DNA of 64,000 nucleotides from NCBI GenBank assembly GCA_031288595.1, contig JAITRB010000004.1, positions 9,491-73,490 of the forward strand, given 5' to 3'. Of this stretch, positions 6,006 through 54,609 are shown in pieces. How positions within the stretch are numbered: position 1 is the stretch's first letter; every line of letters starts with the position of its first letter. Made by a program: the position numbers and the translations under genes. The DNA comes from Puniceicoccales bacterium. GTDB lineage: Bacteria; Verrucomicrobiota; Verrucomicrobiia; Opitutales; JAIRLG01. Under the pieces are notes generated by a model, which was not told where the DNA came from, ran no database searches, and saw nothing but the letters and a program-made list of their open reading frames with translations.

Positions 6006-6114
6006 TTTGGCGCCTTTGGAGGCCTTTGGGCTCCGGCCCGCGGCGCGGGCCGCGGCCGAGGGAGAGGGAGAGCTGTCCCAGCTCTCCCTCTCCCTCGGGC
6101 GCAAAGGCGCCAAA
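6006..6114. repeat. Intergenic four-helix palindromic element, type 1 (order a-b-c on + strand)
   Basis: The closing stem is TTTGGCGCCTTTG/CAAAGGCGCCAAA. Arm a is imperfect (GGAGGCC-TTT-GGGCTCC). Arm b is GGCCCGC-GGC-GCGGGCC. Arm c is a perfect 20-bp stem (CCGAGGGAGAGGGAGAGCTG-TCC-CAGCTCTCCCTCTCCCTCGG). It lies in the divergent lptD/recD2 spacer. Confidence 0.85.
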
Positions 6115-6201
6115 CCGAAGAAAGGCGAGGGGCATCGTCCCGTTCTGAGCTTTGGGATTGAAGAGCGCGGGCAGGAGCACAGACTGCTCCCAAAACCTCC
6201 C

Positions 6202-8400
6202 ATGTCCGTCATCGTACAGGGTAATCTGGAACGCATTCTCTTCCGCTGCGAAGAAAATGCCTATATGGTCGGCCGGCTACGCCCATCGGGACCAGAGCAG
6301 GGAGAGGCCGTTGTTTTCTGCGGGACCTTCCCCAGCGTCCAGTGCGGAGAACGGCTTTCCCTAAAGGGTGAGTGGAAGGAACATCCCACCTACGGCCGTC
6401 GTCTGGAGGTAAATGCCTTCGAAGTCCAGCTCCCATCGGACTTATATGGCCTCGAGCGCTATCTGGCGAATGGATTTGCCAGTGGCATTGGCAAATCCTA
6501 TGCCGCGAGAATCGTCCAACATTTCGGTCCCGAGACCTTCGAAGTGCTCTCCCGTGACATCGGCCGCCTGAATGAGGTGCCGGGTATTGGGGCACGGCGG
6601 GTAGCCCTGATACGCAAGGCCTGGGAGGATCAGGTTCAGATGCGCGACCTCTCCATCTTCCTCCAGAGCTACGAAATTTCCCAGTCGCTCTGCCAAAAGC
6701 TCCACAAGACCTATGGCGACCAGGCGCGCTCGGTGCTGGAAAAGGATCCCTATCGCGTCGCTCGCGAGGTCGCGGGCATCGGCTTCAAAACGGCCGACCG
6801 CATGGCCAGGAACCTCGGCATTTCGGACGAAGCCTCGGTGCGTCTGGAGGCCGGACTCTTCTACAGCTTCGAGACGGAGGAAATGAATGGGCATACCTGT
6901 CTCGAGCGCAGTACTTTGATTCACACTGCCCAGAATCTGCTAGGAGTAGGGGAGGATCTCATCGAGGCCCAGCTCGACCTCCTGCAGCAGTACGGTAAAA
7001 TCCATCTCCTTCCCAGTGGCCGTCTGCAGTTGGCACATTTCAAGGTCGCCGAGGAGACGATTGCCTTCCTCTTGAAACGACTCCTACAGAGAAAATCTCC
7101 CTCTCTGGGGACCATCGATGGGGACGCGGCCGTGGCCTGGGCCCAGCGTCGGGAGGGATTCGTCTTCGCCGAGGAACAACTGCTCGGCCTGCGCTCGGCG
7201 CTGACGAAAAAGGTTTCGGTCCTGACCGGTGGGCCCGGGACGGGCAAGACCACGCTGCTGCGCGCCCTGGTCGCCATTCTACGGGCGAAGCACATCGCCG
7301 TCGCCCTGGCCGCCCCTACTGGCCGCGCGGCCCAGCGCCTGGCCGAAGCGACGGGCACTCCGGCCAAAACCATCCACAAGCTCCTGCAATTCCGAACGGA
7401 TGTGGAGGAGCGCCGGTTCATGCACAACGAGGGATGTCCGCTGAACCTGGACTATCTCATCGTGGACGAGATGAGTATGCTCGACACGCGCCTGGCTGCC
7501 TCGCTGCTGCGGGCGGTGCCGGAAACCGCCTGCGTACTCTTTGTCGGAGACAGCGACCAGTTGCCTTCGGTGGGGGCTGGCAATGTCCTCAGCGACCTGA
7601 TGCAATCCGGAGTCCTACCCGTCGTTCGCCTCCGGAAGGTCTTTCGCCAGGACGATGTGAGCTCCATCGTGCACGTGGCCCATGCCGTCATTGCTGGTAA
7701 TACGACCCTGAGCGGGATCAGTGCTGATCTGTCGGCCATCCAGCCTCGGGACGATTTCCATTTCATCCTGGCGGATTCGCCTGAAGATTGCATCGAGAAG
7801 ACGAAGCAGCTCTGCCTGCTCTGCCTACCGAGCTGGTACGACATCTGCCCGCAGCGGGACGTCCAAATCCTGGTCCCCCTCTACAGGGGCAGCGTTGGCA
7901 TCGATCGTTTTAACGAGATCTTTCAGTCTCTCTATGCCCAGGAGGGCACACAGGTGCCTTGGATGCACCTGCGCCTGGGGGACAAGGTGCTCCAGACACG
8001 CAACAACTACGAAAAGGGCATTTTCAACGGTGATCTCGGGTTCATCCGAGAACTACGGGCATCGGAGAGGAAAATCGTCGTGGATTTCGACGGAGGGGAT
8101 GTCGAGCTGGGCGCGGCGGAAATCGGGGATCTCTCCCTGGCCTATGCGATCAGCATTCACAAATCGCAGGGCAGCGAATTCCCCATCGTCGTGATGCCGC
8201 TCCTCTTCCAGCATTTCATCATGCTCCAGCGCAACCTGCTCTACACCGGTATTTCCCGCGGACGCCACAAGGTCTTCATCATCGGTGACCCGAAGGCCTA
8301 TGCGGCAGCCGTCAGAAATCAAGGGAGTGTCCAGCGCTCGACGGGCCTGCAGGATCTCCTTCGCTCGATAGGCTCTCCGTCCGAAGGGCATGGGTCATGA
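6202..8400 (+). CDS. recD2: RecD2-type SF1 ATP-dependent DNA helicase
   Basis: Helicase motifs are present: LTGGPGTGKTT, LIVDEMSMLD, VGDSDQLPSVGAG and AISIHKSQGSEFP. I placed the start at the ATG at 6202 (MSVIVQGNLERI). The track extension from 6007 runs through repeat copy 6006-6114 and is low-complexity. Confidence 0.9.
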   Translation: MSVIVQGNLERILFRCEENAYMVGRLRPSGPEQGEAVVFCGTFPSVQCGERLSLKGEWKEHPTYGRRLEVNAFEVQLPSDLYGLERYLANGFASGIGKSYAARIVQHFGPETFEVLSRDIGRLNEVPGIGARRVALIRKAWEDQVQMRDLSIFLQSYEISQSLCQKLHKTYGDQARSVLEKDPYRVAREVAGIGFKTADRMARNLGISDEASVRLEAGLFYSFETEEMNGHTCLERSTLIHTAQNLLGVGEDLIEAQLDLLQQYGKIHLLPSGRLQLAHFKVAEETIAFLLKRLLQRKSPSLGTIDGDAAVAWAQRREGFVFAEEQLLGLRSALTKKVSVLTGGPGTGKTTLLRALVAILRAKHIAVALAAPTGRAAQRLAEATGTPAKTIHKLLQFRTDVEERRFMHNEGCPLNLDYLIVDEMSMLDTRLAASLLRAVPETACVLFVGDSDQLPSVGAGNVLSDLMQSGVLPVVRLRKVFRQDDVSSIVHVAHAVIAGNTTLSGISADLSAIQPRDDFHFILADSPEDCIEKTKQLCLLCLPSWYDICPQRDVQILVPLYRGSVGIDRFNEIFQSLYAQEGTQVPWMHLRLGDKVLQTRNNYEKGIFNGDLGFIRELRASERKIVVDFDGGDVELGAAEIGDLSLAYAISIHKSQGSEFPIVVMPLLFQHFIMLQRNLLYTGISRGRHKVFIIGDPKAYAAAVRNQGSVQRSTGLQDLLRSIGSPSEGHGS

Positions 8401-9475
8401 GTCCCAGAAGGGCGTAGACAGCGATGAGGTTAGAACCTCCATAGCTGAGGAAGGGGAGGGAAATGCCCTTGGTCGGGAAGCAGGCGGTGACGACGCCCAT
8501 ATTGAGGATGGACTGGTAAACGATCATGAAAATGGTCCCATAACCCAGGATGCGGGCGAAGAGGGATTCCTGTCGCTGCAGACCGGACAAAACGCTCAGG
8601 AAAAGGAGAGAGAAGAGGCCGATGATGAGCATTCCGCCGATGCAGCCCAGCTCTTCGACCAGTACGGCATAGATGAAATCCGTATGGGCCTCAGGTAGAT
8701 AGGTGAGCTGCTGCCGCCCATGGCCGATGCCCCGTCCCCAGGGCCCACCGGAGACGAAGGCGAGGATGGCTTGCCACAACTGGTAGGAGCCATCGCTGCG
8801 GTTCCCCTCCAGGTCGAGAAAGGAGATGATGCGCTTGAGCCGAGGAGGGTTTCGCCACACGAGCAGGGTGAAGAGGAGCAGGAAAGCAGCAGCCGATAGG
8901 AGCAGGTGCCTGATTTTGGCTCCGCCCAGAAAGAGCAGCGTTACGGCTACGGCCAGGAGAAGGACGGCTGTGCCGTAGTCCGGTTCGAGCAGAACAAGAC
9001 CAGCCCAGAACGAACAGAAGAGAATGGGCTTAAAAAATCCCTTCCAGAAACTATCCATCCATTCCGCATTTTTCTCGATGTAGTCCGCGAGCCAGAGGAC
9101 GAGGGCGATCTTGCTCAATTCCGATACCTGAATGCTGACGAAGCAGTGAATCCAGCGCCGCGAGCCGTTGACTTTTGTCCCTAAGCCTGGGATCAGCACC
9201 GCCACTAAAAGGCCGAGCGAAATCCAGACCCAGAAGGGGAGGGATTTCCTCAGCTTTTCCACTGGGATGAGGGCCGTTAGGCAGAAGGCATTCAGGGCCA
9301 AAACTAACCAGGCGAGCTGCTTGAGGGCGTAATTCTCCGACTTGAGAAAGGCAAGGCTAGCGCTGGAGAGGATGACGAAGCCCATGACGTTCAGGAGCAG
9401 CGCCAGCAGAATGCAGAAGCATTCCCTTTTCCTCTTTCTAAAAAAAAGGCCGCTCGAGAGAAATTCGAAGTTCAT
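8312..9475 (-). CDS. ftsW: SEDS-family peptidoglycan polymerase FtsW/RodA
   Basis: About 10 TM segments are present, with LPEAHTDFIYAVLVEELG and SYGGSNL motifs. The gene follows murD on the same strand. Its start overlaps the LysM gene stop as ATGA. Confidence 0.85.
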   Translation of the reverse strand: MNFEFLSSGLFFRKRKRECFCILLALLLNVMGFVILSSASLAFLKSENYALKQLAWLVLALNAFCLTALIPVEKLRKSLPFWVWISLGLLVAVLIPGLGTKVNGSRRWIHCFVSIQVSELSKIALVLWLADYIEKNAEWMDSFWKGFFKPILFCSFWAGLVLLEPDYGTAVLLLAVAVTLLFLGGAKIRHLLLSAAAFLLLFTLLVWRNPPRLKRIISFLDLEGNRSDGSYQLWQAILAFVSGGPWGRGIGHGRQQLTYLPEAHTDFIYAVLVEELGCIGGMLIIGLFSLLFLSVLSGLQRQESLFARILGYGTIFMIVYQSILNMGVVTACFPTKGISLPFLSYGGSNLIAVYALLGLMTHALRTESLSSEGDPAGPSSAGHSLDF

Positions 9476-12680: not shown

Positions 12681-12792
12681 GCGCGATGACCCCTTTGCGA
12701 AGCAAAGGGGAAGACAGGCATCTCGCCGGGGCGAGATGCCTGTCTTCCGGTGGGAGCCCGAATGACCTTCGGGCTCCCACCGGTCATCGCGC
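12681..12792. repeat. Intergenic four-helix palindromic element, variant (type 2) copy
   Basis: The outer stem GCGCGATGACC/GGTCATCGCGC encloses three hairpins. They are CCCCTTTGC-GAA-GCAAAGGGG, a 17-bp GAAGACAGGCATCTCGC-CGGG-GCGAGATGCCTGTCTTC, and GGTGGGAGCCC-11 nt-GGGCTCCCACC. The copy lies in the divergent nudix/accA spacer. It is followed by AAAAAAACACCTCC, the same tail as copy 48459-48555. Confidence 0.7.
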
Positions 12793-13905: not shown

Positions 13906-14002
13906 TTTCGCTGTCTTTGGATTCCGAAGGAATTGCCCGCTGCGCGGGCTACGAGGAGGCGCTGGCGCAAGCGCCAGCACCTCCTCACCAAAGACAGCGA
14001 AA
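13906..14002. repeat. Intergenic four-helix palindromic element, type 1 (a-b-c)
   Basis: The closing stem is TTTCGCTGTCTTTGG/CCAAAGACAGCGAAA. Arm a is GATTCC-GAA-GGAAT. Arm b is GCCCGC-TGC-GCGGGC. Arm c is 16 bp (GAGGAGGCGCTGGCGC-AA-GCGCCAGCACCTCCTC) with one C:A mismatch on the + strand, which is G:U on the - strand. It lies in the convergent accA/rbfA spacer. Confidence 0.85.
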
Positions 14003-20283: not shown

Positions 20284-20360
20284 TGGCGAGGTGGACGGGA
20301 CTTGAACCCGCGACCTTCGGCGTGACAAGCCGACGCTCTAGCCAACTGAGCTACCACCCC
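20284..20360 (-). tRNA. tRNA-Asp (anticodon GTC), CCA encoded
   Basis: The reverse complement reads GGGGTGGTAGCTCAGTTGGCTAGAGCGTCGGCTTGTCACGCCGAAGGTCGCGGGTTCAAGTCCCGTCCACCTCGCCA. The 7-bp acceptor stem has one G:U pair. The D-loop is AGCTCAGTTGG. The anticodon loop TTGTCAC gives GTC. The T-arm is GGTTCAAGTCC. Confidence 0.9.
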
Positions 20361-20480: not shown

Positions 20481-20578
20481 CTGCGCTGTCTTTGCAGGTG
20501 CGAAATGGCCTGAAAGGCCATTTCGCACCTGGGGCTCGCGGAGCGAGCTGAGCCCTGTGGGCTCCAAAGACAGCGCAG
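20481..20578. repeat. Intergenic four-helix palindromic element, type 1 (c-b-a)
   Basis: The closing stem is CTGCGCTGTCTTTG/CAAAGACAGCGCAG. Arm c is a perfect 16 bp (CAGGTGCGAAATGGCC-TGAAA-GGCCATTTCGCACCTG). Arm b is a variant (GCTCGC-GGA-GCGAGC). Arm a is GAGCCC-TGT-GGGCTC. It lies between clpC and tRNA-Asp. Confidence 0.85.
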
Positions 20579-20614: not shown

Positions 20615-23167
20615 TCAGGCCTCGGCCGTAGTCACCGCCGAGCGCACCGAGTGTCTGGACCGAAAAAAAGTACGGCCGTCGGGATCCAGAGCGACCTGGA
20701 CCGACATATCCTCGCGAAGGCTTCCCTGGAGAAAGGCTTCGGCCAAAGGGTCTTCGACATGGCGCTCGATGGCCCGCCGCAGCGGCCGTGCCCCATATTT
20801 AGGGTCATAGCCCTTCTGGATGAGAAAATCCTGCATCTCCTGGCTCAGCCGGATGGAAATTCTCCTCGCCTCCAGGCGCCGGTTGAGGGCAGCCAGTTCC
20901 AGGCGGACGATAGCCTCCAGCGCGCTGCGGGAGAGCGGTCGGAAGACGATGATCTCGCTCAGACGGTTGAGAAACTCTGGCCGAAAGGCCTTTTTCACCT
21001 CTTCTAATACCCGAGCTTTAGTCGCCTCGAAATCACCGAATTCCCGGTGCCCCGAGGAAGGAAAGCCCAGACTGCCATTTTTCTGAAAGAGCTCGGCACC
21101 GACATTGCTGGTCATGAGAAGCAGAGTGTTCCGAAAATCGACCTTGCGGCCGAGGCTGTCCATCAAACGGCCCTCTTCGAGAATCTGAAGGAAAAGGGGC
21201 AAGATCTCCTGGTGCGCCTTTTCGATCTCGTCGAAGAGCAGCAGGCTGTAGGGCTTGCGCCGAACCGCTTCTGTGAGCTGGCCGCCCTCCTCATGACCGA
21301 TGTAACCCGGGGGCGAGCCGATCAGGCGGGAGGCGGAAAATTTTTCCAAATACTCCGTCATGTCGACCGAGATGAGCGCATCGGCGGAGCCGAACACCTT
21401 TTCCGCCAGCGCTTTGGCCAAATGGGTCTTGCCCACACCGCTGGGGCCCAGGAAGAGAAAGGAGGCAATGGGCCGCTTCGGGTCGCGGAAATCGGCCTGG
21501 GCACGCCGAAGGGAGCGGGAAATAGCGGCAATGGCTTCGGATTGGCCGACGACAGAGGACTGCAGTTCCTCCTCGATGGAGAGCCAGGATTCGCCCTCCT
21601 TGGGCTCCACGCGCTCGAGAGGAATGCCCGTGTAGTTCGACACCGTGTGGTAGATGCATGCCTCGTCGATGGGGATGGCCGAAGTGGACTGGAGCTGCTC
21701 GCGCCAGCCGTGCAGGGCGGAGGCCCGCTGTTCGCGGAGCTGCTTCTCCTTATCCCTTAACTGGGCCGCCTCCTCGAAGCGCTGTTCGCGGATCGCCCTT
21801 TCCTTCTGTCCGATGATCTCTTCCAACTCCTGCTGTAGGGAGTCGACGAGTGCCGGTGGTCGCGGGTGGACATGCAGATGGGCATAGGAACCGGCCTCGT
21901 CCAGGATGTCGATGGCCTTGTCGGGAAGGGAACGGCCCTGTATGTAACGGTCGGAGAGCCGCACAGCCAACTCGACGGCCTGGGGAGTATAGGTGACGGA
22001 GTGATGGGCCTCGTAGCAGGACTGAATTCCCTGGAGGATGTAAATGCTTTGCTGGACACTGGGAGCCTCGACAACGATCGATTGGAATCGCCGTTCCAAG
22101 GCTGTATCCTTCTCGATATTCTTCCGGTACTCCGCAAAGGTCGTGGCGCCGATACACTGGATCTCCCCACGGGAAAGCGCCGGCTTTAGCATATTAGAGG
22201 CATCCATCGAGCCCTCCGAGGCACCGGCTCCGACCAGGGTGTGCAGCTCATCGAGGAAGAGGATGATGTTCTGGGCCCGCCGAACCTCCTCCATAAGCGC
22301 CTTGAAGCGCTCCTCGAACTGTCCGCGATACTTGGTGCCAGCCACCATGAGGGCTAGGTCGAGCGAGAGGATGCGCTTGTCCTGCAGGGACAGCGGAACT
22401 CTTTTGGCGACGATGGCCTGGGCCAGGCCTTCGACGATGGCGGTCTTTCCCACACCGGCCTCACCGATGAGCGCCGGATTGTTCTTCGTACGCCGGCAGA
22501 GAATCTGAAGACTGCGCTCGATTTCCCTGTCGCGGCCGATGACCGGATCCAGGTGCTTGCCCTGGGCCAGGGCGGTGAGGTCGCGGCTAAAGGCCCGAAG
22601 GGCAGGCGTTTTCAGCTCCACCCGCATGACCTCTTCGTGGGCTGGCAAAGGATCCAAAGGATGGCCATCGCCCCCTTCCGCAGACCTGCGCACATCGCCG
22701 GTAAACTGGGGATCCAGCTCGGAGAGAATGGCCTGGCGGCACTCCTGAGCATCCAGGTGGATCTCGCGCAGTACTTCCGAGGCAATCCCTTCACTCTCGC
22801 ACAGAAGGGCCAGGAGAAGGTGCTCCGTTCCGATGTAGGAGTGCTGGAGTCCGCGCGCCTCCTTGGCCGCCAGGATGAGGACCTTCTTCACCTGAGGGGT
22901 GAAGGGGACTTGGGGAGAAGTTTTAAAAAGAGGCTGTACCGGCTCGCGGAGGAGGGCGGAGATCCTCTGTTCGATGCGCTCCCGAATGACCGCATTATCC
23001 ACACCGAGCCGTTCCAGGGTGTTGAAGGCAATGCCCTGACCCAGCTCCAGAATCCCGAGCAAGAGGTGTTCGGTGCCTACATAGGGTTGGCGGAAGCGGT
23101 CCGCTTCCTGTCGGGCTAAGACCAGTACCTGCTGGGCCCTGGGCGTGAAATTGTTGATGGGATCCAT
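20615..23167 (-). CDS. clpC: AAA+ chaperone ClpC (Clp protease ATP-binding subunit)
   Basis: Two Clp_N repeats are present. Walker A motifs are GEAGVGKTA and [13 protein letters not shown]-like linker ([17 protein letters not shown]) lies between the modules. The start is set at the internal ATG at 23167 ([12 protein letters not shown]). Confidence 0.9.
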
Positions 23168-23268
23168 GTAGGGCAGCTTTGAAGAGAAATTATAGACTGG
23201 TTTTGGAAATGACAATGCCTTTGTGCATGGGAGCTGTGGGTTTGCGAGGGTTTGTCGCTGGCGTGCTT

Positions 23269-23369
23269 GGGGCTGTCTTTGGATCCCTCACGGGATCGCC
23301 CGCGAAGCGGGCCCCAGCACTGGAAGGGAAAAGTTTCCTTTTCCCTTCCAGTGCTGCAAAGACAGCCCC
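23269..23369. repeat. Intergenic four-helix palindromic element, type 1 (a-b-c)
   Basis: The closing stem is GGGGCTGTCTTTG/CAAAGACAGCCCC. Arm a is GATCCC-TCAC-GGGATC. Arm b is GCCCGC-GAA-GCGGGC. Arm c is a perfect 19 bp (CAGCACTGGAAGGGAAAAG-TTTC-CTTTTCCCTTCCAGTGCTG). It lies in the divergent clpC/rpsO spacer. Confidence 0.85.
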
Positions 23370-23584
23370 TCTAAAAAACCTTTCCCAATTTCAGGGAAAA
23401 TCTCTCCCTCCGTCTCTAAAAATCCTTGTGGAATGTTGGGAATTGCCCAAGGTCGATGCCCACGCCAGCAAAAGCATTTGCCGCAGCTCTCGGGACTTCC
23501 GAGTAGAGCGATGTCTTGGCCGGTAGGCGAAGGCAGGAGGAACAGAAGGCTGTCCCTCTAAAAGTTGCGAGTGGATAGAATAAC

Positions 23585-23857
23585 ATGTCTAAAGCGGAAT
23601 ACCTCGAAAAGGGGCCGGTCATCGATGCATTTAGAATGCACGAGAAAGATACGGGGTCCTGTGAAGTTCAGGTCGCCATTCTGACAGCCCGCATCCAGCA
23701 CATCACAGAACATCTGCGCTCCCATAAAAAGGACTATCACAGCCGTCGGGGACTGATCGCGATGGCCAATCGCCGGCGGAAGCTTCTGGATTACCTTCAG
23801 AAGCACAGTCTGTCGCGTTACGAGGCCCTCATCCAGCGCCTGAACCTGCGCCGCTGA
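23585..23857 (+). CDS. rpsO: 30S ribosomal protein S15
   Basis: The ORF is 90 aa. The sequence [35 protein letters not shown] matches S15. It lies upstream of pnp. Confidence 0.97.
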
Positions 23858-23994
23858 GTCTCGGTAAGGGGGAAATGGTTTTGGCAATGGCAAGAGGATG
23901 GGAAGTTTGGTTTTTTCACAAGAGAGTGGGGTTTATGAACGGGAAAGAGGAAGAGAGGGGCCATGAAGGACTGGCCTGAGCGAAAGAGAAGAAT

Positions 23995-26196
23995 ATGAAG
24001 CAGTTATACAATGTGGAGGTGCCCGAGCGGGGCCTGAGATTTTCCACCGGCAGTTTGGCGAAACAGGCCAATGGAGCGGTGACGGTGCAGCTGGGGGACA
24101 CCTGTGTCTTCGTCAGTGCGGTGGCGGCGGAGAGCCCTCGATCGGGACAGGATTTCTTTCCCCTGAGCGTCGACTACCGCGAGAAATTCTCGGCGGCCGG
24201 ACGGATTCCCGGGGGTTATTTCAAGCGTGAGGGCCGGCCATCGGAAAAGGAAGTCCTGAGCTCGCGGCTCTGCGACCGCCCGCTGCGACCGCTCTTCCCC
24301 AAGGGCTTCATGAATGAGGTACAGATCATCGGCTACCTCCTGTCGGCCGACCTGCAGAACGACGGCGATATCCTGATGATCAACGGCGCATCAGCGGCAT
24401 TGCTCTGTTCCGACATTCCCTGGGGCGGCCCCATCGGGGCGATCCGTCTAGCGGACATCGGTGGCGAATGGGTCGTGAACCCCACCCATGAGCAGATGCT
24501 GGACTCTCGACTGGACATGGTCTATGTCGGCAACGGGCGCCATCTGCTGATGATCGAAGGGAATGCCGACCAGCTGCCGGAGGAGCGATTTCTGGAAGCC
24601 CTTCGCTTCGCCCAGGAGAGCATTCAGCCGATTCTGCGGGCTCAGCGGGAATTGGCCACCCTGGCGGGCAAGCCCAAGAGGGACTTCCCGCTGGTACAGC
24701 CCGACGAACGCGTCTTGTCCCTCTGCTCGCACTTTGAAGAGCGTCTTCGGGAAGCCATTGCCCTGCCGGAAAAGATTTCCCGCAATGCCGCCATTGCCGC
24801 CGTTAAAGAGGAGATAAAAGCGAGCATAGACGAGAAACTGGGCGAGGACTTGGAGGAGCCTGAAACGGCGCTGTCCGTTGCCTTCGAAGAGCTGCTCGAA
24901 AGAACCCATCGGCATCGCCTTCTGGAAGAGGGAAAACGCTCGGATGCTCGGGCATGCGATGAGATCCGTCCCATCGAGTGCGCCACCGGCATCCTGCCCT
25001 GTGTGCATGGTTCTGCCCTTTTTCAACGGGGCGAGACCCAGGCATTGGTGACCACGACGCTGGGCTCCTCGCGGGATGTCCAGGAGATCGACGCGGTTTC
25101 CGGCGGTATCCACTCCAAGACCTTTGTGCTGCACTACAACTTCCCGCCCTTTTCGGTCGGCGAGACGGGCCGCATGGGCTCGACCGGCCGGCGGGAAATC
25201 GGCCATGGGGCATTGGCGGAGCGCTCGCTGACGCCGGTGTTACCGGGTGAGGAGGAATTTCCCTACGCCATCCGCGTACTGTCCGATATTCTGGAATCCA
25301 ACGGCTCCTCCTCCATGGCTACCGTCTGCGGCGGCTGCCTGGCCCTGATGGACGCCGGTGTCAAAATCACAGCACCGGTGGCCGGCATCTCGCTTGGACT
25401 GGTCAGCGCCACCGATGAGAATGGGGAGATCCAAAAGCACCTCATTCTGACCGACATCATCGATGCCGAGGATCATTTCGGCGATATGGACTTCAAGATT
25501 GCCGGAACGCAGAAGGGCATCACCGGCTTCCAGCTGGATCTGAAGATCCATGGTCTACCGCTGAGCGTCGCGGAGGAGGCGGTAATCCGCAGCCGTGCGG
25601 CGAGGCTGAAGATCCTGGAACTCATGCGGGCCGTTCAAGCGGATCCGAGAGAAGAGCTGAGGGAAAATGCACCGCGTTACGAGCGGGTGAAGATTGATCC
25701 CGAGAAGATCGGCGCCCTCATCGGCCCTGGAGGGAAGAACATCAAGCGGATCACGGAGATCTCCGGTGCCCAGATCGACATCCACGAGGATAACAGTGGA
25801 TGGGTATCGATCTTCGCTACAGGCCGCGAGTCGCTGGAGCGCGCGCTGCAGGAGATCCAGCTCATCTCGGCGGAGATCGAGCCCGGAAAGGTCTATCGCG
25901 GCATCGTGCGTTCGGTGAAGGACTTCGGTATCTTCGTGGAGTGCATCCCGGGCAAGGAGGGCATGGTGCACGTCTCGGAACTCTCCGATATCCGCATCGA
26001 GCGGCCGGAAGATGTCTGCCGGATCGGCGATGAGATAGTCGTCAAGTGCGTCGGCATCGACGAGCGCGGACGGGTGCGCCTGAGCCGCAAGGCGGCGCTC
26101 TGCGAGGCCCGAGGCGATCCCTATGAGGCGAAAATGCCCTCCAGTCGCCCACGAGGTGCTCCGCGGGAGCGGACCTCCTCCCATCGAGAGCGCTAG
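23995..26196 (+). CDS. pnp: Polyribonucleotide nucleotidyltransferase (PNPase)
   Basis: Two RNase PH domains are present. There is a KH domain ([11 protein letters not shown]) and an S1 domain ([20 protein letters not shown]). Confidence 0.97.
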
Positions 26197-26264
26197 ACTC
26201 TCCCAGACCATCCTCTTTCCCAAGCCCATTGGGCGAGTTTTCCAAACTCAGGTCTGGGCATTGT

Positions 26265-26361
26265 CCGCTGTCTTTACGGGGTGAAGATGAAAAGGGACTT
26301 TTCATTTTCACCCCGCGGCCCGCGAAGCGGGCCAAATCCCTCTGGGATTTAAAGACAGCGG
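26265..26361. repeat. Intergenic four-helix palindromic element, type 1 (c-b-a)
   Basis: The closing stem is CCGCTGTCTTTA/TAAAGACAGCGG. Arm c is 17 bp (GGGGTGAAGATGAAAAG-GGA-CTTTTCATTTTCACCCC) with one G:T on the + strand. Arm b is GGCCCGC-GAA-GCGGGCC. Arm a is AAATCCC-TCT-GGGATTT. It lies between pnp and glgC. Confidence 0.85.
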
Positions 26362-26434
26362 CAAAGAACATCCACCTTCCTCCGGTGGAACACGGTTTGA
26401 CTTCGGGACCAGAGGCACTAGACTGAGGGATGGA

Positions 26435-27718
26435 GTGGATGGTTCGAAGGTATTGTGCGTCATCATGGGAGGAGGACGGGGCCGGCGCCTAGATCCGCTG
26501 ACGAGATGCCGCTGCAAACCGGCCGTGCCGCTAGCGGGGAAGTACCGCCTGGTCGACATCCCCATCAGCAACTGTCTGAATTCGGGCTTCAACCGCATCT
26601 ACATCCTGACCCAATTCAACACCCGCTCGCTGCACCGCCACATCGAGAACAGCTACCGTTTCGACAGCTTCGGTGGAGGAAAGATCGAGATCTTTTCGGC
26701 CGAACAGACTCAGGATAGTTCCGACAGTTGGTACGAGGGTACCGCCGATGCAGTTCGCAAGAACATGCGTTACTTCCACACCTCGGAGGACGACCTGATG
26801 ATCATCCTCTCCGGTGACCAGCTCTACCGCATGAACATCGCCGACCTGGTGGAGCAGCACCGACTCCACGGTTCTGATGTGACGATTGCTGCCAAGGCCA
26901 TCCCCAATGAGCGGATCTCTTCCTTCGGCGTCATGCGCGTTCTACCGGATCTCTCCATCGCGGAGTTCTTCGAAAAACCGGATGATCCGGAACTCATCGA
27001 ACAACTGACCCTGGCTGGCGAGTGGCGTAGCCGCTTAAAAGATCAATCCTCCAAAAAATACAGCCTGGCCTCGATGGGCATCTACGTCTTCAGGGCGGAA
27101 ATCCTGAAACGGGCTCTGGCGAGCTGTGGATCCGATTTCGGAAAGGAGATCATCCCGGGGCTTTTGGGAAAAGTCGCGATGCGGGCCTATATCTTCGACG
27201 ACTACTGGGAGGATATCGGAACGGTGCGCTCCTTCTTCGATGCCAACCTAGGCCTGACCTCGCCACAGCCGGAATTCAACTTCTACGATGCACTGGCGCC
27301 GATCCATACACATCCGAGCATCCTGCCCGCGTCGAAAGCAAACCACTGCGAGCTGGAAGAGGTTCTGATCTCGGATGGCTGTCTTCTGGAAGAGGTCCAT
27401 CTGAAGCGCTGCGTGCTGGGCCTCTGCTCTGTCGTCCGTGAGGGAACGCGTATGGAAAATGTCCTCATGATGGGTTCCCGCCACTACGAATCGCTGGAGG
27501 AAGGGCCGACGTCTGAGAGCGAGGTACCGCCCATCGGCGTGGGCTGTCACAGCTACGTTCGGGACTGCATCATCGATAAAGGTGCTCGCATCGGGAACCA
27601 TGTGCATCTGAGTCCCGAAGGCAAGGAGGACGGATTTGAGTACAATGGGCTCTATGTCCGCGATGGTATTCTCTGCATCGGTCGGGATGCCGTCGTTCCG
27701 GACCACACCGTGCTCTAG
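26435..27718 (+). CDS. glgC: Glucose-1-phosphate adenylyltransferase
   Basis: The sequence VIMGGGRGRRLDPLTRCRCKPAVPLAGKYRLVDIPISNCLNSG matches GlgC. The start is GTG. The C-terminus is a left-handed beta-helix region. Confidence 0.9.
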   Translation: MDGSKVLCVIMGGGRGRRLDPLTRCRCKPAVPLAGKYRLVDIPISNCLNSGFNRIYILTQFNTRSLHRHIENSYRFDSFGGGKIEIFSAEQTQDSSDSWYEGTADAVRKNMRYFHTSEDDLMIILSGDQLYRMNIADLVEQHRLHGSDVTIAAKAIPNERISSFGVMRVLPDLSIAEFFEKPDDPELIEQLTLAGEWRSRLKDQSSKKYSLASMGIYVFRAEILKRALASCGSDFGKEIIPGLLGKVAMRAYIFDDYWEDIGTVRSFFDANLGLTSPQPEFNFYDALAPIHTHPSILPASKANHCELEEVLISDGCLLEEVHLKRCVLGLCSVVREGTRMENVLMMGSRHYESLEEGPTSESEVPPIGVGCHSYVRDCIIDKGARIGNHVHLSPEGKEDGFEYNGLYVRDGILCIGRDAVVPDHTVL

Positions 27719-27898
27719 CCCTCCTCTGGGTCCGCAGAGCGGATATCCCTTCCCCGGGAATGAAAAGACTTGAAAATGTCCGCCGCGCGCTTTCCGTCAC
27801 CCCCATGCCCGCGATTTTTGAGGTTCCCACCGGGCCGAAAATCTGTATAATTCTAATCATAGAGAACTGGGCGAGGAGATTTCCGTAGTCAGCAAAAC

Positions 27899-28675
27899 GT
27901 GTCCCAAGAAGAGGAAAGTTCAGAAAAGGTCTCTGCCTCGTCGATTCCGGAGGAGCGGGAAGAGGATGCGGATCGGCGCTGCGGGCAGATTTTAGAAGAA
28001 CTCTGGGAAGAGTTCCCTCTCTCTCCCAGTACGCCCTTACCATGGCCGGTGATCTGGGTGAGTGGCGCACCGGGATCTGGAAAAGGGGTCAATGCCGGCT
28101 ACGTGAAGCGTGTTCTCGGAATATCCGCGGAACCGGTGGTCATCAGCGAGCTCTTGCAATCGCAGGATTCGAGAAGCCGCATCGACCACGGAGACCTGGT
28201 CGACGATCTCAGCGTCATTCGGGCGAGCCTGAAGGCTCTGCTGCAGGCCAGAGGCGGTGAAGGCCTGCTGATGGACGGCTATCCGCGCTCCCTGCTCCAG
28301 GCGAAATTCCTGCACCGGTTGGAGGAGAAATGGCGGGCTTTGGGACTTGGAATGCTCCAATTTCGGATGCTCGTCTTTTCCGTCGACGAGGCGACGAGCC
28401 TGGAACGGCAGCTCTCCCGTGGCCGCAAGGCGATGGCCCACAATCAGGAAGTCAAGCGGACCGGGAAGGGGGTACTGCGCGAGGTACGCCCGACGGACAT
28501 CGATGAAACGCTGGCCCGCCGGCGCTACCATACCTTTCTCCAGGAGACCGATGCGGCCCTGCGCCATCTCCAATCGACTGGCATGCCTTTTGTCGAAATC
28601 GACAGCCGCGGCCCTTTCGAGGTCGTCCAAAGGCGCATCGAGCAGAAACTCAGGCCCTGGATTTCCAATTCCTGA
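27899..28675 (+). CDS. Adenylate/nucleoside-monophosphate kinase-like protein with acidic N-terminal extension
   Basis: It has a P-loop GAPGSGKG, DGYPR, and RPTDIDETLARRRY, which resembles the adenylate kinase R-x-D-D segment. The canonical NMP-binding TGD(L/M)LR motif is absent. The first 50 aa or so are rich in E and S. The start is GTG. Confidence 0.5.
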   Translation: MSQEEESSEKVSASSIPEEREEDADRRCGQILEELWEEFPLSPSTPLPWPVIWVSGAPGSGKGVNAGYVKRVLGISAEPVVISELLQSQDSRSRIDHGDLVDDLSVIRASLKALLQARGGEGLLMDGYPRSLLQAKFLHRLEEKWRALGLGMLQFRMLVFSVDEATSLERQLSRGRKAMAHNQEVKRTGKGVLREVRPTDIDETLARRRYHTFLQETDAALRHLQSTGMPFVEIDSRGPFEVVQRRIEQKLRPWISNS

Positions 28676-28847
28676 GACCTTTTCGGGCGGATAGATGCTG
28701 AGGATAGGTATCGCACCGGGGAGGAGATCTATCGGGAAGCGAGGAGGGGCGATCCCTGCACTTCCGGTGCGCCCTTTGTCCCCATGGGGAATCGCTTTGC
28801 CCGGGGGACAGAAACTTGGCCCGGGCTCAGGGTTCCCTGGGCTTGTG

Positions 28848-28958
28848 TTTTTGGGGGCTGTCTTTGCCGCGGGAGGAATGAAAGGGAATTTTTCATTCCT
28901 CTCGCGGGGGCCCGCTTCGCGGGCGAGCCCTCCGGGCTCCAAAGACAGCCCCCAAAAA
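28848..28958. repeat. Intergenic four-helix palindromic element, type 1 (c-b-a)
   Basis: The 19-bp closing stem is TTTTTGGGGGCTGTCTTTG/CAAAGACAGCCCCCAAAAA. Arm c is 16 bp (CGCGGGAGGAATGAAA...TTTCATTCCTCTCGCG) with one G:T on the + strand. Arm b is GCCCGC-TTC-GCGGGC. Arm a is GAGCCC-TCC-GGGCTC. It lies between the adk-like gene and prfA. Confidence 0.85.
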
Positions 28959-29082
28959 TTTCCACCGAGACCGAGATGGACCTGCCCGCAGCATACCCTA
29001 TCCTTCCCTTCGTCCTAAACCCGCTCAGCACTTGACGAAAAGAGCCCAGTCCCTTAAAGCTCAGGGGATTCACGGATGAGCC

Positions 29083-30174: not shown

Positions 30175-30218
30175 GGGAAGCTATGGGTATCGAGGAAAAG
30201 AGTTCAGGGGTCTTGTTT

Positions 30219-30313
30219 CCCCGCTGTCTTTGCGACAAGAAAAAATGTTTTTTTTCATGTCGGGACCCATGGCTAGCCATGGGCGAGCCCTTCGGGCTCC
30301 AAAGACAGCGGGG
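30219..30313. repeat. Intergenic four-helix palindromic element, type 1 (c-b-a), divergent arms
   Basis: The closing stem is CCCCGCTGTCTTTG/CAAAGACAGCGGGG. Arm c is A/T-rich and imperfect (CGACAAGAAAAAA-TG-TTTTTTTTCATGTCG). Arm b is replaced by CCCATGG-CTAG-CCATGGG. Arm a is GAGCCC-TTC-GGGCTC. It lies between prfA and tilS. Confidence 0.8.
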
Positions 30314-30374
30314 CAGAAGCTCAAGGGATGGCATGAGGGGCCTTTGGCAATGGGTTTGAGGAGGACTTGGGTCC

Positions 30375-31820
30375 ATGCCGTCGGATGAAATTTTTCCCCG
30401 AGAGGATGAAAATTTTTCGGCCGGCCTCTGGGCGCAACGGGCGGCAGACTTAGGCCGGCATATACCTCGGACGCTCTTGGATGAGCAGGTCGTCGCGCGG
30501 CTCTCCGAAAAGGGCAATCGGGCACTTGGCATCGCCTGCTCGGGGGGGATCGATTCGCTCTGCCTCCTGTTGCTGTCCGTCGCCCACTTTCCAGAGTGTT
30601 CGTTCTTCATCCTGCACTACAACCACGCCCGACGGGGAGAGGAATCCGATGGCGACGAGGTCTGGCTGCGTCGGGTTGTCGCGAACCTGGGACTGCCCTT
30701 TTTTTCGGAAAAGCGTTCGGAATTGGGGCATCCCTCGGAGGCGGATCTGCGCCGAGACCGCTACGCCTTTTTCGAAAGAATCCTGTCGCAGGAACGAGCT
30801 CAGCAGCTCCTGCTGGGGCATCAATTGGATGATGTCTGCGAAGCCTGGATGATGAACACTGTCCGTGGAGCCTCCCTGGGGGCGTTGGTGTCTCCACTGT
30901 CCGTACAGAGAATTGGCCCCTTCTGGCGCCTGCGACCCCTGATCCATCTGGAGCGCCGACGGCTGGCCGAGGCCATGTGCTCGGCCGGCATTCCCTGGCG
31001 CGAGGACAGCAGCAACCGCAGCGATGCCTTTCTGCGGAATCGCGTCCGCCATCATCTCCTGGCGGTAATGGGAGAAGTATTTCCCCGACGCCCGTGGAAG
31101 GCCGGCTGGCAGCATACCTGGAAACAGATTCGGGAGGCCGACGCGTTCCTGCGATTTCACGCCGAAAGGTTTTCGAATCTTCTCCAGGATCCATCGCCGG
31201 ACTTCTCCCCCCTGCGTGGCCAGCCTCGGGCGCTGTGGCGCTTTCTTCTCAATGCCTGGCTGGGGCAGCAGGGTCTGCGGGCGCAGGTGTGTGCGGGGAA
31301 TTTTGAGAATATGCTCCAAGCCCTTTCGGAGGGCGGACAATTCTCCTGCAGCCTCGGGACGAAAAAAGTGCTCCGGGTAAAAGCCCAACATCTGGAGCTG
31401 GTCGAGAAATTCTCAGCTGAAGGGGAAGGGTTTTCACTGCTATGGAATTCTTCTCGGGTGGCAGTGGCAGGGGGCTTTCTGGAGAGAAGACCGTGCTCGT
31501 GGAAGGACGGGCGAGGAGAGCTGAGCATGGAGAAAAATATCCTCAGGGTTAGGCTCGATCTGCCGGGGCAGCAACCGCTCCTGTTGAGGAACTGGCAGGC
31601 CGGAGATGTCTACCGCCCCTTCGGGTTATTGGGAACGAAGAAGTTGAAAAAAATGTTTCAGGAACGGAGGGTGCCACCGGAAAAACGGAGGCAGCTGCCG
31701 GTCATCGTACTGCCCGAATCCGGAAAGATCGTCTGGGTACCCTTTCTGCCTCTCGGCGAGGACTTTCGGGTGCCGGAGGGAAGTAAGTCGGCTCTTGAGT
31801 TGACATTCCACGAGTTTTGA
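30375..31820 (+). CDS. tilS: tRNA(Ile)-lysidine synthase TilS
   Basis: The PP-loop motif is GIACSGGIDSLCLL. The C-terminus is TilS-like (KLKKMFQERRVPPEKRRQLPVIV). The gene lies directly upstream of ftsH. Confidence 0.85.
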   Translation: MPSDEIFPREDENFSAGLWAQRAADLGRHIPRTLLDEQVVARLSEKGNRALGIACSGGIDSLCLLLLSVAHFPECSFFILHYNHARRGEESDGDEVWLRRVVANLGLPFFSEKRSELGHPSEADLRRDRYAFFERILSQERAQQLLLGHQLDDVCEAWMMNTVRGASLGALVSPLSVQRIGPFWRLRPLIHLERRRLAEAMCSAGIPWREDSSNRSDAFLRNRVRHHLLAVMGEVFPRRPWKAGWQHTWKQIREADAFLRFHAERFSNLLQDPSPDFSPLRGQPRALWRFLLNAWLGQQGLRAQVCAGNFENMLQALSEGGQFSCSLGTKKVLRVKAQHLELVEKFSAEGEGFSLLWNSSRVAVAGGFLERRPCSWKDGRGELSMEKNILRVRLDLPGQQPLLLRNWQAGDVYRPFGLLGTKKLKKMFQERRVPPEKRRQLPVIVLPESGKIVWVPFLPLGEDFRVPEGSKSALELTFHEF

Positions 31821-38151: not shown

Positions 38152-38253
38152 CCCTCCGTTGTCTTTGGATTCCGAAGGAATCCGGCCCGCTTCGCGGGCC
38201 GCAAGCTAAGAACAAAATCACTTTTGTTCTTAGCTTGCAAAGACAACGGAGGG
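38152..38253. repeat. Intergenic four-helix palindromic element, type 1 (a-b-c), twin of 39117-39214
   Basis: The closing stem is CCCTCCGTTGTCTTTG/CAAAGACAACGGAGGG. Arm a is GATTCC-GAA-GGAATC. Arm b is GGCCCGC-TTC-GCGGGCC. Arm c is a perfect 16 bp (CAAGCTAAGAACAAAA-TCAC-TTTTGTTCTTAGCTTG). It lies just downstream of rpe. Confidence 0.9.
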
Positions 38254-38280: not shown

Positions 38281-39024
38281 TCAGACATGGAGAGGAAAAA
38301 GTTTTCTCAGAGCTTCTCGCTGAGCAGGATCGAAAAAACTACTTCCAGAGACCAATAGATCCGCTCCATGCTGGAGGCAGTCTTGAGCCGTAGTTACATT
38401 AATCCCTCCATCAACCGCTATGAAAAAGGGAAGCTTATGCTGCCGCCGCAGCTTACCGATGCGATCGATCTTCATCAAGACATCAGGGTTAAAGCTCTGC
38501 CCACAGAATCCAGCTTGTACAGCCATGAGGAGCACGACATCGACCTGTTCCAGCCATGGCACTAATCTTTCGGGAGATGTACCCAAGTCACAGGCCAAGC
38601 CGACTAGAACGTTCTCCTCCCGCACATACTGCAGCATGTCTCTGCTTGTCCCTTGCGATTCGATATGAAAGGAGATGAGGTCTGCTCCGGCTTCGATGAA
38701 GCTTTCTAGAAAAATCTCCGGATGTTCCAGCATGAGATGGACATCAAAGAGAAGAGAACTGCCTTTCTTGAGGGCTTTCAGGGTTTGTGCCCCGAAGCTG
38801 AGGTTCGATACGAAATGCCCGTCCATGATATCCATATGAACCCAAGGAAGCTGATGGAGCTCGATGATTTTTTGACTGGATCGCAGATCTCCCTGATCAC
38901 CGCTGAGCAGAGAAGGGATGAGCAGCGGAGAGGAAAGTTTTTGGATTGCGGACCTTGGAGTAATAATGGTACCTCTAGGAGATTTTTCTTGAATGACGCT
39001 CTTCTTATCCTGGGTTGACCTCAT
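38281..39024 (-). CDS. rpe: Ribulose-phosphate 3-epimerase
   Basis: The motifs IPSLLSGD, VHMDIMDGHFVSNLSFG and VDGGIN are present. An N-terminal extension of about 30 aa precedes the conserved core, so the true start is uncertain. Confidence 0.88.
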   Translation of the reverse strand: MRSTQDKKSVIQEKSPRGTIITPRSAIQKLSSPLLIPSLLSGDQGDLRSSQKIIELHQLPWVHMDIMDGHFVSNLSFGAQTLKALKKGSSLLFDVHLMLEHPEIFLESFIEAGADLISFHIESQGTSRDMLQYVREENVLVGLACDLGTSPERLVPWLEQVDVVLLMAVQAGFCGQSFNPDVLMKIDRIGKLRRQHKLPFFIAVDGGINVTTAQDCLQHGADLLVSGSSFFDPAQREALRKLFPLHV

Positions 39025-39116: not shown

Positions 39117-39214
39117 CTCCGCTGTCTTTGGATTCCGCAGGAATCCGGCCCGCTTCGCGGGCCGCAAGCTAAGAACAAAACTACTTTTGTTCTTAGCTTG
39201 TAAAGACAGCGGAG
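39117..39214. repeat. Intergenic four-helix palindromic element, type 1 (a-b-c), twin of 38152-38253
   Basis: It matches copy 38152-38253 except for about 6 positions. These include a compensatory pair in the closing stem (CGCTGTC...GACAGCG versus CGTTGTC...GACAACG). It lies just upstream of rpe. Confidence 0.9.
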
Positions 39215-42268: not shown

Positions 42269-42360
42269 TTGGCTGGCTTTGCAAGGGACAAATGGCTTCT
42301 GCCATTTGTCCCTTGCGGCCCGCGCAGCGGGCCCGATGCTTTGCCTCGAAAGCCAGCCAA
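42269..42360. repeat. Intergenic four-helix palindromic element, type 1 (c-b-a)
   Basis: The closing stem is TTGGCTGGCTTTG/CGAAAGCCAGCCAA. Arm c is a perfect 15 bp (CAAGGGACAAATGGC-TTCT-GCCATTTGTCCCTTG). Arm b is CGGCCCGC-GCA-GCGGGCCG. Arm a is weak (CGATGC-TTT-GCCTCG, one mismatch). It lies inside the plsX-fabH spacer. Confidence 0.8.
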
Positions 42361-48458: not shown

Positions 48459-48555
48459 TTGCCGGCTTTCCCCCGGAGGGCCCAGGACATCTGTCCTGGG
48501 CCCTCCGGGGAGCCCGCAGAGCGGGCATGATTCCTTTGGAATCGAAAGCCGGCAA
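48459..48555. repeat. Intergenic four-helix palindromic element, type 1 (c-b-a)
   Basis: The closing stem is TTGCCGGCTTTC/GAAAGCCGGCAA. Arm c is about 17-19 bp (CCCCGGAGGGCCCAGGACA-TC-TGTCCTGGGCCCTCCGGGG). Arm b is GCCCGC-AGA-GCGGGC. Arm a is GATTCC-TTT-GGAATC. It lies in the convergent gspF/thrS spacer. It is followed by AAAAAAACACCTCC. Confidence 0.85.
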
Positions 48556-54136: not shown

Positions 54137-54204
54137 GGGGTGCTAAAGAACTTGACAGTGGCTGCTTTCTGCCCTCCTTAGGGAGGATAGGAAGGCTTAT
54201 ACAT

Positions 54205-54453
54205 TTGACCATGACCGGAGAGGAAATTCACAAGGTGATTTTGGACATCATTCGGGAAATCGCACCGGATCAGGATCTCTCACGGGTAAAGCCGGAGCTT
54301 CCACTGCGGGAGCAGTTGGATTTGGATTCGATGGATTTTCTGGACATCGTGATGGAGCTGCGCAAGCGCCATAACATCGAGGTTCCGGAAGCGGATTACC
54401 CACGCCTGGAGTCCCTGGATTCCTGCGCGGAATATTTGGCAGACAAGTTCTAG
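54205..54453 (+). CDS. Acyl carrier protein-like (phosphopantetheine attachment site)
   Basis: The ORF is 82 aa with an LDLDSMDFLDIVMEL attachment motif (DSM serine). The start is TTG, with an ATG 2 codons in. No fab or polyketide genes are adjacent. Confidence 0.7.
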   Translation: MTMTGEEIHKVILDIIREIAPDQDLSRVKPELPLREQLDLDSMDFLDIVMELRKRHNIEVPEADYPRLESLDSCAEYLADKF

Positions 54454-54509
54454 CTCTAGCTCTTCCCCGAGGGAAAATTTCAGGAGACCCAAGGGCTAGG
54501 GAGGCTTAA

Positions 54510-54609
54510 GGTCGCCTTTGGAGCCTTCGGCTCCGGCCCGCTGCGCGGGCCCCGCCGAGGGGAAAGGGAAGAGAAATCTCTTCCCTTTCCCCTCGGCGTA
54601 AAGGCGACC
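54510..54609. repeat. Intergenic four-helix palindromic element, type 1 (a-b-c)
   Basis: The closing stem is GGTCGCCTTTG/TAAAGGCGACC, with the innermost pair G:T on the + strand. Arm a is GGAGCC-TTC-GGCTCC. Arm b is GGCCCGC-TGC-GCGGGCC. Arm c is a perfect 20 bp (GCCGAGGGGAAAGGGAAGAG-AAAT-CTCTTCCCTTTCCCCTCGGC). It lies between the ACP and the lolD-like gene. Confidence 0.85.

Follow-up and report, generated by a model that had tools for sequence, protein, structure and literature searches.

A family of four-helix intergenic elements in Puniceicoccales with a longest arm that varies between copies and remains paired

Four-helix elements in the intergenic spacers of a Puniceicoccales chromosome

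The DNA analysed in this study is a stretch of 64,000 nucleotides, referred to as the window, on contig JAITRB010000004.1 of a Puniceicoccales bacterium (assembly GCA_031288595.1). It represents core chromosome with a G+C content of about 58%, and its genes include recA, lptD, accA, infB, nusA, clpB, pnp, glgC, adk, prfA, tilS, ftsH, recR, prmA, rpe, bamD, fabH, plsX, topA, thrS, trxB, ruvB, ileS, clpP and flhB. One product of 428 aa matches a Puniceicoccales protein from a metagenome-assembled genome at 100% identity. The intergenic spacers contain a family of nested palindromes, and the subject of this report is the longest hairpin of these elements, termed arm c, which an initial annotation of the window had described as hypervariable in sequence yet near-perfectly palindromic in every copy.

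Copies of the element were identified with a structure-blind scan (CTTT...AAAG with complementary flanks) and with a covariance model, both applied to the entire window. Scan and model alike yielded exactly 12 intergenic elements of 86-103 nt, with covariance-model scores of 64.6-91.2 bits, and the model detected no decayed relics of this family in the window, even with its filters switched off. The pattern CTTTG-N12-22-GCCCGCNNNGCGGGC matched seven times in the window and not once in 100 shuffles. A four-way-junction fold was predicted for all 12 copies, with free energies of -49 to -94 kcal/mol. The outer stem consists of the core GCTGTCTTTG...CAAAGACAGC, with the variants GCCGCCTTTG and GCTGGCTTTC, lengthened by 3-5 bp that are specific to the copy, and it encloses three hairpins: arm a with 6-7 bp and a triloop, arm b with the sequence GCCCGC-NNN-GCGGGC, and arm c, the longest with 13-24 bp. 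On the + strand the arms occur in the order a-b-c in six copies and c-b-a in the other six. The copies are listed below, those of relatives being designated by locus and start position.

Copy 1, 6009-6111, + strand, order a-b-c; arm c 6052-6102, 24-nt arms with 23 positions matched, 20 of them contiguous; 67.1 bits; between divergent lptD-like and recD2-like genes.
Copy 2, 13910-13998, + strand, order a-b-c; arm c 13953-13986, 15 positions with one C:A; 67.3 bits; located 25 nt downstream of accA (accA and rbfA are convergent); orthologue L202:8776.
Copy 3, 20485-20574, - strand, order c-b-a on the + strand; arm c 20495-20531, 17 bp, perfect; 83 bits; arm b variant GCTCGC/GCGAGC; between tRNA-Asp and clpB; orthologue L036:3357; close paralogues L025:137 and L202:6580, in which only a 5-bp block of arm c differs.
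Copy 4, 23272-23366, + strand, order a-b-c; arm c 23315-23356, 19 bp, perfect; 86.4 bits; orthologue L036:218, in which the distal part of arm c has decayed.
Copy 5, 26267-26359, - strand, order c-b-a on the + strand; arm c 26277-26315, 18 positions with one G:T; 86.3 bits; pnp-glgC spacer; orthologues L197:740 and L199:4807.
Copy 6, 28857-28949, - strand, order c-b-a on the + strand; arm c 28867-28907, 18 positions with two transition-type defects; 91.2 bits; outer stem reaching 19 bp; adk-prfA spacer; orthologues L197:3975 and L075:5307.
Copy 7, 30223-30309, - strand, order c-b-a on the + strand; arm c 30233-30262, 13 positions with one A:A mismatch; 64.6 bits; arm b enlarged to GCCCATGGC-TA-GCCATGGG(C/T); prfA-tilS spacer; orthologues in L075, L022, L073 and L198.
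Copy 8, 38158-38247, + strand, order a-b-c; arm c 38201-38238, 17 bp, perfect, shared with copy 9; 85.4 bits; between prmA and rpe; single orthologue L201:12071.
Copy 9, 39121-39210, + strand, order a-b-c; arm c 39164-39201, 16 bp plus one G:T; 85.7 bits; between rpe and lptE; direct duplicate of copy 8, distinguished from it by a compensated pair in the outer stem, by loop bases and by a single G:T pair.
Copy 10, 42272-42357, - strand, order c-b-a on the + strand; arm c 42281-42316, 16 bp, perfect; 67.6 bits; fabH-plsX spacer; orthologue L201:8652, with two compensated pairs and zero single changes.
Copy 11, 48461-48553, - strand, order c-b-a on the + strand; arm c 48471-48510, 18-19 bp, perfect; 75.2 bits; between a convergent T2SS-F-like gene and thrS.
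Copy 12, 54511-54608, + strand, order a-b-c; arm c 54553-54598, 21-22 bp, perfect; 81.3 bits; spacer between ruvB and the gene of an ABC-transporter ATPase; close paralogue L025:3799 at a non-syntenic locus, arm c differing by compensated pairs only.

Pairing, covariation and sequence content of arm c

Arm c occurs in 11 distinct sequences among the 12 window copies, with 38158 and 39121 having one in common, and yet six of the stems are perfect and the remaining six carry one or two defects. The initial annotation was therefore correct in reporting an arm that varies across copies and stays a near-perfect palindrome; its pairing counts agree with our recount to about 1 bp, and its span is matched by the recounted arm c coordinates, of which the first begins at 6052 and the last ends at 54598. 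When copies from related metagenome-assembled genomes (MAGs) were included, giving 57 copies in total, 94% of the arm c positions were Watson-Crick pairs (952 positions, against 27 transition-type mismatches, 14 transversion mismatches and 21 gaps). The arm was perfect in 21 of these copies, had one defect in 23 and more in 13, with a mean of about one defect per arm.

Covariation was assessed in a family alignment obtained by plain MAFFT from 54 copies. RNAalifold recovered all four helices from this alignment, with both-side changes in 25 of 32 pairs. Paired cells amounted to 95.0%, compared with 77.3% in shuffles, and both-side changes to 325 cells, compared with 93 in shuffles, none of 500 shuffles reaching a value as high; sliding the partner columns by 1-3 positions lowered the pairing to 40-50%. 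Pairing across the family is thus far beyond chance. The distal outer stem behaves in the same way, as do arms a and b in rarer cases.

Grouping of the arm c sequences at an identity of at least 80% placed the 65 copies in 49 clusters, of which 39 were singletons, and the clusters with several members mostly contain orthologues or recent paralogues. Arm c is accordingly largely locus-specific and does not fall into the few conserved sequence classes that the initial annotation had considered as the contrary outcome. It is not free sequence, either. Its 5' half is purine-rich in 51 of the 57 copies, with a mean of 71% (for instance at 54553-54574 and 23315-23333 of the window), and its 3' half is pyrimidine-rich; since the arm is a palindrome, this purine polarity is the same on both DNA strands. 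The purine-rich left halves and the AAATGGC motif common to copies 3 and 10 (20481 and 42269 in the numbering of the initial annotation) are both real. Moreover, an ATG is located within the 5' half in 22 of the 57 copies, usually in an AATG-like context as judged by eye and often near the tip, and the first 4 bp or so of arm c define the subfamilies CAGC, CAAG, CCGC and GCGG. A pairing constraint alone leaves the purine polarity unexplained.

Rates of evolution between orthologous copies

The relatives L197, L075, L036, L201 and L202, each at a distance of 0.235-0.254 from the window at fourfold sites, were used for the comparison of orthologous copies. The pooled fourfold-site distance was 0.245 over 4,016 sites, and transitions made up 67% of the differences. 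Two pairs of copies that had been considered as orthologues, 54511/L025:3799 and 42272/L108:5319, were dropped as the loci are non-syntenic, and they were treated as paralogues. Arm c was compared pair by pair at eight orthologous loci, comprising 130 pairs. Unchanged pairs numbered 104, and 14 pairs had switched to another Watson-Crick pair, five by transition-type and nine by transversion-type changes; 11 pairs differed on one side only, and in one case a mismatch was opposed to a pair. Ten of the 11 uncompensated differences were transitions.

Three rate classes were observed within the element. The stem of arm c diverges by 0.158 per site, which is about 0.6 of the neutral value of 0.245, so that the term 'hypervariable' used in the initial annotation is too strong. 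The triloops of arms a and b, at about 0.33 differences per site in our own tally, evolve roughly as neutral sequence does. For the outer core and the stems of the same two arms, about three changes were counted in approximately 360 nt, a rate about 30 times below neutral. Copies are retained at orthologous sites with this protected core, which argues against simple selfish decay. Its exclusion of ordinary drift was well founded: the 14 complementary double changes contrast with 1.1 expected under independence (P about 1e-11), and independent drift of the two halves is therefore excluded.

The question is consequently whether selection on the helix is sufficient. Stability of the hairpin or cruciform, selected at the DNA level on both strands, could lead to stepwise compensation by point mutations with no special copying. 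Selection is certainly present, as is evident from the persistence of orthologous copies and the slow core stems. The load of arm c, about one defect per arm, fits a stability-threshold model, where a single defect would be almost neutral but a second would not, and uncompensated G:T and A:C states do occur. On the other hand, an additive weak-selection equilibrium model calibrated on the observed mismatch load of 4.5-10% predicts only 3.0-5.7 flips (P = 3e-6 to 2e-3) where 14 were seen. Selection as the only force is a possible explanation of these data, though not the favoured one, and the type of the changes described below also speaks against it.

Strand symmetry and the putative role as RNA or terminator

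Most copies are located between co-directional genes and are hence probably transcribed. A T-tract follows the element on neither strand, such that transcription would read through it. Along with the strong covariation, these features are compatible with a structured RNA, for example an intercistronic stabiliser or processing site of mRNAs, in which arm c would covary by selection at the RNA level. This explanation has to contend with the fact that G:U is almost absent from the three helices formed by the outer stem, arm a and arm b (3 of about 1,130 cells, compared with 101 both-side changes), and that the G:T counts on the two strands are equal (17 versus 21). The triloops show no strand polarity: GNA or its reverse complement TNC is present in 66-78% of the copies at a ratio of about 1:1 in the element's own frame, unlike ribosomal RNA (rRNA), where stable loop motifs exceed their reverse complements 8- to 66-fold, depending on the class, and GAAA outnumbers UUUC 99-fold (PMC8794818). 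Nine window copies lie between co-directional genes and read c-b-a on the sense strand in six cases and a-b-c in three; one further copy is situated between divergent genes. A sense-strand excess of G:U in these nine copies was not apparent (3 sense versus 4 antisense), the numbers being uninformative. The only match to Rfam at the gathering threshold in the window was the tRNA-Asp at 20284-20360, and a search of positions 23150-30400 at E up to 5 returned just chance microRNA and long non-coding RNA matches of 20-24 bits, so that no Rfam family corresponds to the element; ARAGORN gave no tRNA-like match for it. The scarcity of G:U, the loops without polarity, the lack of an orientation bias and the copy between divergent genes make an RNA-only constraint unlikely.

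Intrinsic terminators with freely varying stems were considered as well, as the hairpins are G+C-rich and located downstream of genes. This candidate was rejected on the basis of the flank composition, which shows no T-tract: T and A make up 11% and 37%, respectively, of the downstream 15 nt, and T accounts for 34% of the upstream 15 nt. Since this composition is symmetric by palindromy, a U-tract follows the element on neither strand. Furthermore, arm c sits inside the outer stem, and copies occur within apparent operons and between divergent genes. A role as terminator is barely conceivable under these circumstances.

Distribution and turnover of the family in related genomes

A pattern scan of the genome collection for the motif detected real copies in only three Puniceicoccales MAGs, whose names point to a possible origin in termite guts, and the matches outside these MAGs, mostly in G+C-rich genomes, are due to chance. 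Targeted look-ups contributed five more syntenic contigs. In a metagenome scan with prfA, the element was absent from Opitutae loci at a prfA amino-acid identity of 63% or less, and it was also absent from L203, a syntenic contig of 8.7 kb with a nucleotide identity of about 70%. Three matches in viral contigs were all chance hits at 15 bits or less. Accordingly, the family is confined to a narrow clade of Puniceicoccales (Verrucomicrobiota).

The copy density is 1 per 5.3 kb in the window versus 1 per 2.6-3.5 kb in the relatives, whose extra copies are located in the glgC-adk, adk-prfA, ftsW-LysM, murligase-NUDIX and ABC-prmA spacers (L202 3662-4074 and 6538-7040; L201 13176-13441; L197 2379-2755 and 4075-4256). 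Insertion boundaries could not be read, as each extra copy lies within 170-410 bp of added, unalignable spacer with no flanking direct repeat. Judged from these comparisons, copies have been gained and lost within the clade. In addition, members of different subfamilies, with a different outer stem and arm c, occupy the same spacer of different genomes in opposite orientation, namely 6009-6111 of the window versus L202 84-178, and 26267-26359 versus L073 5747-5845 and L022 7791-7889. This occupancy implies turnover or re-insertion at preferred spacers.

These paired observations, along with the many presence/absence differences among the relatives, could also be taken to mean that arm c is made anew at each insertion, by fold-back copying of target DNA, and that differences between orthologues reflect the replacement of copies. 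However, recent paralogues at different loci have the same arm c and distal outer stem, as in the pairs 38158/39121, 54511/L025:3799 and L058:1480/L075:5134, and therefore no new arm is made per copying event. Where a block of 2-5 bp in arm c differs, the remaining element and the flanks are collinear. The derivation of arm c from flanking or target DNA was rejected on the basis of word lengths, the longest word that arm c has in common with its own flanks being 7.6 compared with 7.1 for the flanks of other copies. This explanation is very improbable and already largely refuted.

Several features of the window and its relatives adjoin the element copies. The rpe gene (38281-39024) lies in a stretch of low G+C content (0.515 in 38-40 kb) and is flanked by the direct copies 38158 and 39121 with the same arm c. 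The duplication around rpe comprises about 125 bp, including approximately 25 bp of the prmA-side flank. The corresponding region of L201 (11919-12281) contains lptE, one element copy and then prmA, with no rpe, and thus rpe was either inserted at the element copies or deleted by recombination between them. The tRNA-Asp(GTC) gene (20284-20360, - strand) is located 124 nt from copy 20485, and L025:137, the close paralogue of this copy in another genome, also adjoins a tRNA-like 3' end. The glgC-adk spacer of L197 (2400-2560) and L075 (6700-6960, reverse) contains several tandem-like GGGGYTGTCAGRCC-N-GGNCGRTGCT units beside an element copy, of which the window has just a remnant of about 19 nt at approximately 27730-27750. 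A Logan contig from SRR14710895 (L200), essentially of the same strain and 99.98% identical to the window over 4.3 kb, ends inside copy 39121 at window position 39151. As this independent short-read assembly breaks inside the copy, the repeats fragment assemblies, and the copy numbers in MAGs are probably underestimates.

A second family of four-helix nested palindromes is present in the window at 2147-2242 (- strand) and 12683-12790 (+ strand), scoring 30.1 and 19.6 bits, respectively, with the model of the first family. Each member combines an outer stem of the type GCGC... with the small hairpin C(C)TTTGC-NAA-GCAAAG(G); the two further arms are long (11-19 bp) and perfect, and the two copies differ in them. 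The small hairpin reuses the CTTTG/CAAAG motif that closes the whole junction of the first family, which may indicate that growth is modular, with palindromes becoming nested in loops.

Templated copying as a proposed source of coordinated changes

The two alternatives named in the initial annotation, selection on the helix and copying of one half from the other, proved to be the right pair, and the evidence leans to a templated contribution at the DNA level; what had been overstated was the rate of change. The evidence comes from the near absence of G:T intermediates, noted above for the outer stem and the two short arms, and from the nature of the changes themselves. The double changes, with a ratio of 5 transition-type to 9 transversion-type, deviate from the 67% transition background (P = 0.016), in contrast to the uncompensated differences with their 10 transitions in 11, and a transition:transversion ratio of about 1:2 is what block replacement by unrelated sequence yields. 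Under selection alone, transversion flips would have to proceed without a wobble intermediate, and yet they outnumber the transition-type flips.

Block changes were seen directly in the comparison of copies. Positions 6-8 of arm c are CTA in one and GGG in the other when 38158 is compared with its L201 counterpart, and positions 9-13 differ as a block between 26267 and L199. The AATGGCC subfamily comprises four near-identical members at three loci that differ only at positions 5-9 of arm c. In the loops, the intermediates GNC and TNA between the two prevailing triloop types are found in only 4 of 130 loops, and an exact inversion, TTC versus GAA, distinguishes 20485 from L025:137. Arm b of 30223 and of its orthologue in L075 is the perfect palindrome ATGGC-NN-GCCAT where the outgroups have GC-ANA-GC. 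Template switching is reported to homogenise the arms of inverted repeats, to invert spacers and to make multibase compensatory changes, and stem extension is another of its published signatures (PMC8794818, PMC8604942). By point mutation, each of the block changes, loop reversals and palindromic replacements would need several coordinated events, which is a further difficulty for an explanation by selection only.

On this basis we propose that selection keeps the element and that templated copying supplies most of the coordinated change, a reading to which we assign a probability of roughly 0.5. The sequence-specific part of the element would consist of the junction core with arms a and b, putatively the site that a trans-acting factor binds or recognises or the seat of a structure-specific function, and arm c and the distal outer stem would need only to be helices. 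A mutation in one half of arm c would be either purged or passed to the opposite half, which would bring divergence near to the background rate. The transfer between the halves would take place mostly at the DNA level, by intra-hairpin template switching during replication, i.e. quasipalindrome correction, a process that may also invert loops and create palindromic insertions. Template switching would work here on elements that selection itself retains. The data directly demonstrate the architecture, the covariation, the three rate classes, the retention at orthologous sites and the passing of arm c to new copies, and the templated mechanism and the recognising factor are inferred.

Several points weigh against this proposal. 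A direct template-switch event was not observed, and the sample is small, with 14 double changes over 8 loci. The alignment of self-complementary arms can make one symmetric indel look like several compensated substitutions. The copy finder demanded a stable three-branch fold, by which the mismatch load is underestimated, and the selection model is therefore biased to too few expected flips. The threshold model mentioned above could yield a high flip rate without templating, and the strong conservation of the core demonstrates that selection does act on the elements. Uncorrected defects persist in L036:218, L058:4986 and L108:5319. Finally, the purine-rich 5' half of arm c is explained by neither templating nor selection.

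A bolder form of the proposal, which is speculative and on balance doubtful, regards the element as a self-templating DNA structure in which each helix of the junction is rewritten as a whole by fold-back or template-switch synthesis. This would explain the jumps in the central block of arm c, the GNA/TNC flips and the palindromic modules born inside loops, and the second family of the window may be a sign of such helix rewriting. The invariant junction with arms a and b would then serve as substrate for an enzyme of Verrucomicrobiota, either an undescribed structure-specific recombinase or a domesticated transposase.

Significance of the element family

How long perfect stems can withstand random mutation is an old question, and the family described here represents a clean test case. 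Each genome contributes dozens of independent helices, and every one of them comes with three controls of its own: loops that evolve neutrally, an arm constrained only to pair and a core constrained in sequence. Orthologues are available at a convenient divergence. Compared with rRNA or single reporter loci, the family could thereby better distinguish selection from templated mutation. To our knowledge, interspersed repeats in Verrucomicrobiota are poorly described, and the four-way-junction architecture is unusual. Since copies are kept at orthologous sites, the element may have a role for its host, or element and host may be bound in a lasting relationship like that of REPIN repeats and their REP-associated tyrosine transposases (RAYTs). 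If the self-templating form of the proposal were true, the family would amount to a host-element system akin to REPINs but of new architecture, and would offer a natural setting for measuring template-switch mutagenesis. For genome analysis, the elements are of interest because they break short-read assemblies and mark spacers where the gene content shifts, as in the case of the rpe insertion.

Comparison with known repeat systems

A literature search on repeats in Puniceicoccales returned nothing relevant. The family was compared with known repeat systems. Integron attC sites resemble the element in that a single-strand fold is kept while the central sequence and length vary, with conserved short core sites at the base. 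The element consensus differs from them in having no RYYYAAC/GTTRRRY cores; there are no cassette arrays of single orientation and no intI, and the elements flank housekeeping genes in both orientations (6:6).

The T-shaped terminal hairpins of parvoviruses such as adeno-associated virus, with their flip and flop forms, are also nested palindromes that form a multi-arm junction, and in both cases the small arms flip orientation without altered pairing. The resemblance is structural only: the viral hairpins terminate a linear single-stranded DNA genome and are resolved by Rep nicking, whereas the four-helix elements are chromosomal, internal and interspersed.

With cases of quasipalindrome correction by template switching, the family has in common arm homogenisation, multibase compensatory changes, loop inversion and stem extension, all of which are seen here, albeit in a small sample, the process itself being putative in this family. 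The published cases are single loci, rRNA or microRNA genes and reporter hotspots, whereas here the pattern would span a whole interspersed family of nested palindromes.

Miniature inverted-repeat transposable element (MITE)-like repeats, such as Correia/NEMIS, ERIC, BOX and RPE, are likewise about 100 nt long, intergenic, bounded by terminal inverted repeats and often co-transcribed, and they too show presence/absence differences between related genomes. Differences concern the target site and the ends. There is no target-site duplication, the best flanking direct repeat measuring 1.25 nt compared with 1.00 nt for shuffled partners, with distributions that are alike. The termini of the element are copy-specific inverted complements over the terminal 3-5 bp instead of conserved, transposase-binding inverted repeats, and in relatives with an extra copy the inserted stretch exceeds the element. 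Neither the window nor about 200 kb of related loci revealed a parent insertion sequence.

The closest likeness is to repetitive extragenic palindromic (REP) sequences and the derived bacterial interspersed mosaic elements (BIMEs) and REPINs, which are high-copy, strictly intergenic palindromes of the core chromosome, vertically inherited and long-lived. In these elements, compensatory changes are common, and all that is required of the spacer is to fold into a hairpin (PMC3116915). The family corresponds to this description with its 12 copies in 64 kb, all intergenic, and its hairpins with compensatory changes. It differs in that the tag GTAG was found within 12 nt of the ends in none of 58 copies and CGTC in one of 58, in that the element is a four-helix junction of 86-103 nt instead of a hairpin of 20-40 nt or a doublet of two REPs, and in that the host belongs to the Verrucomicrobiota; no RAYT or transposase domain was present among the 30 open reading frames of the window scanned against Pfam. 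The family is thus a relative, of unreported architecture, of the REP, REPIN and MITE-like repeats, with REP and REPIN sequences as the closest and MITE-like repeats as the next closest counterparts.

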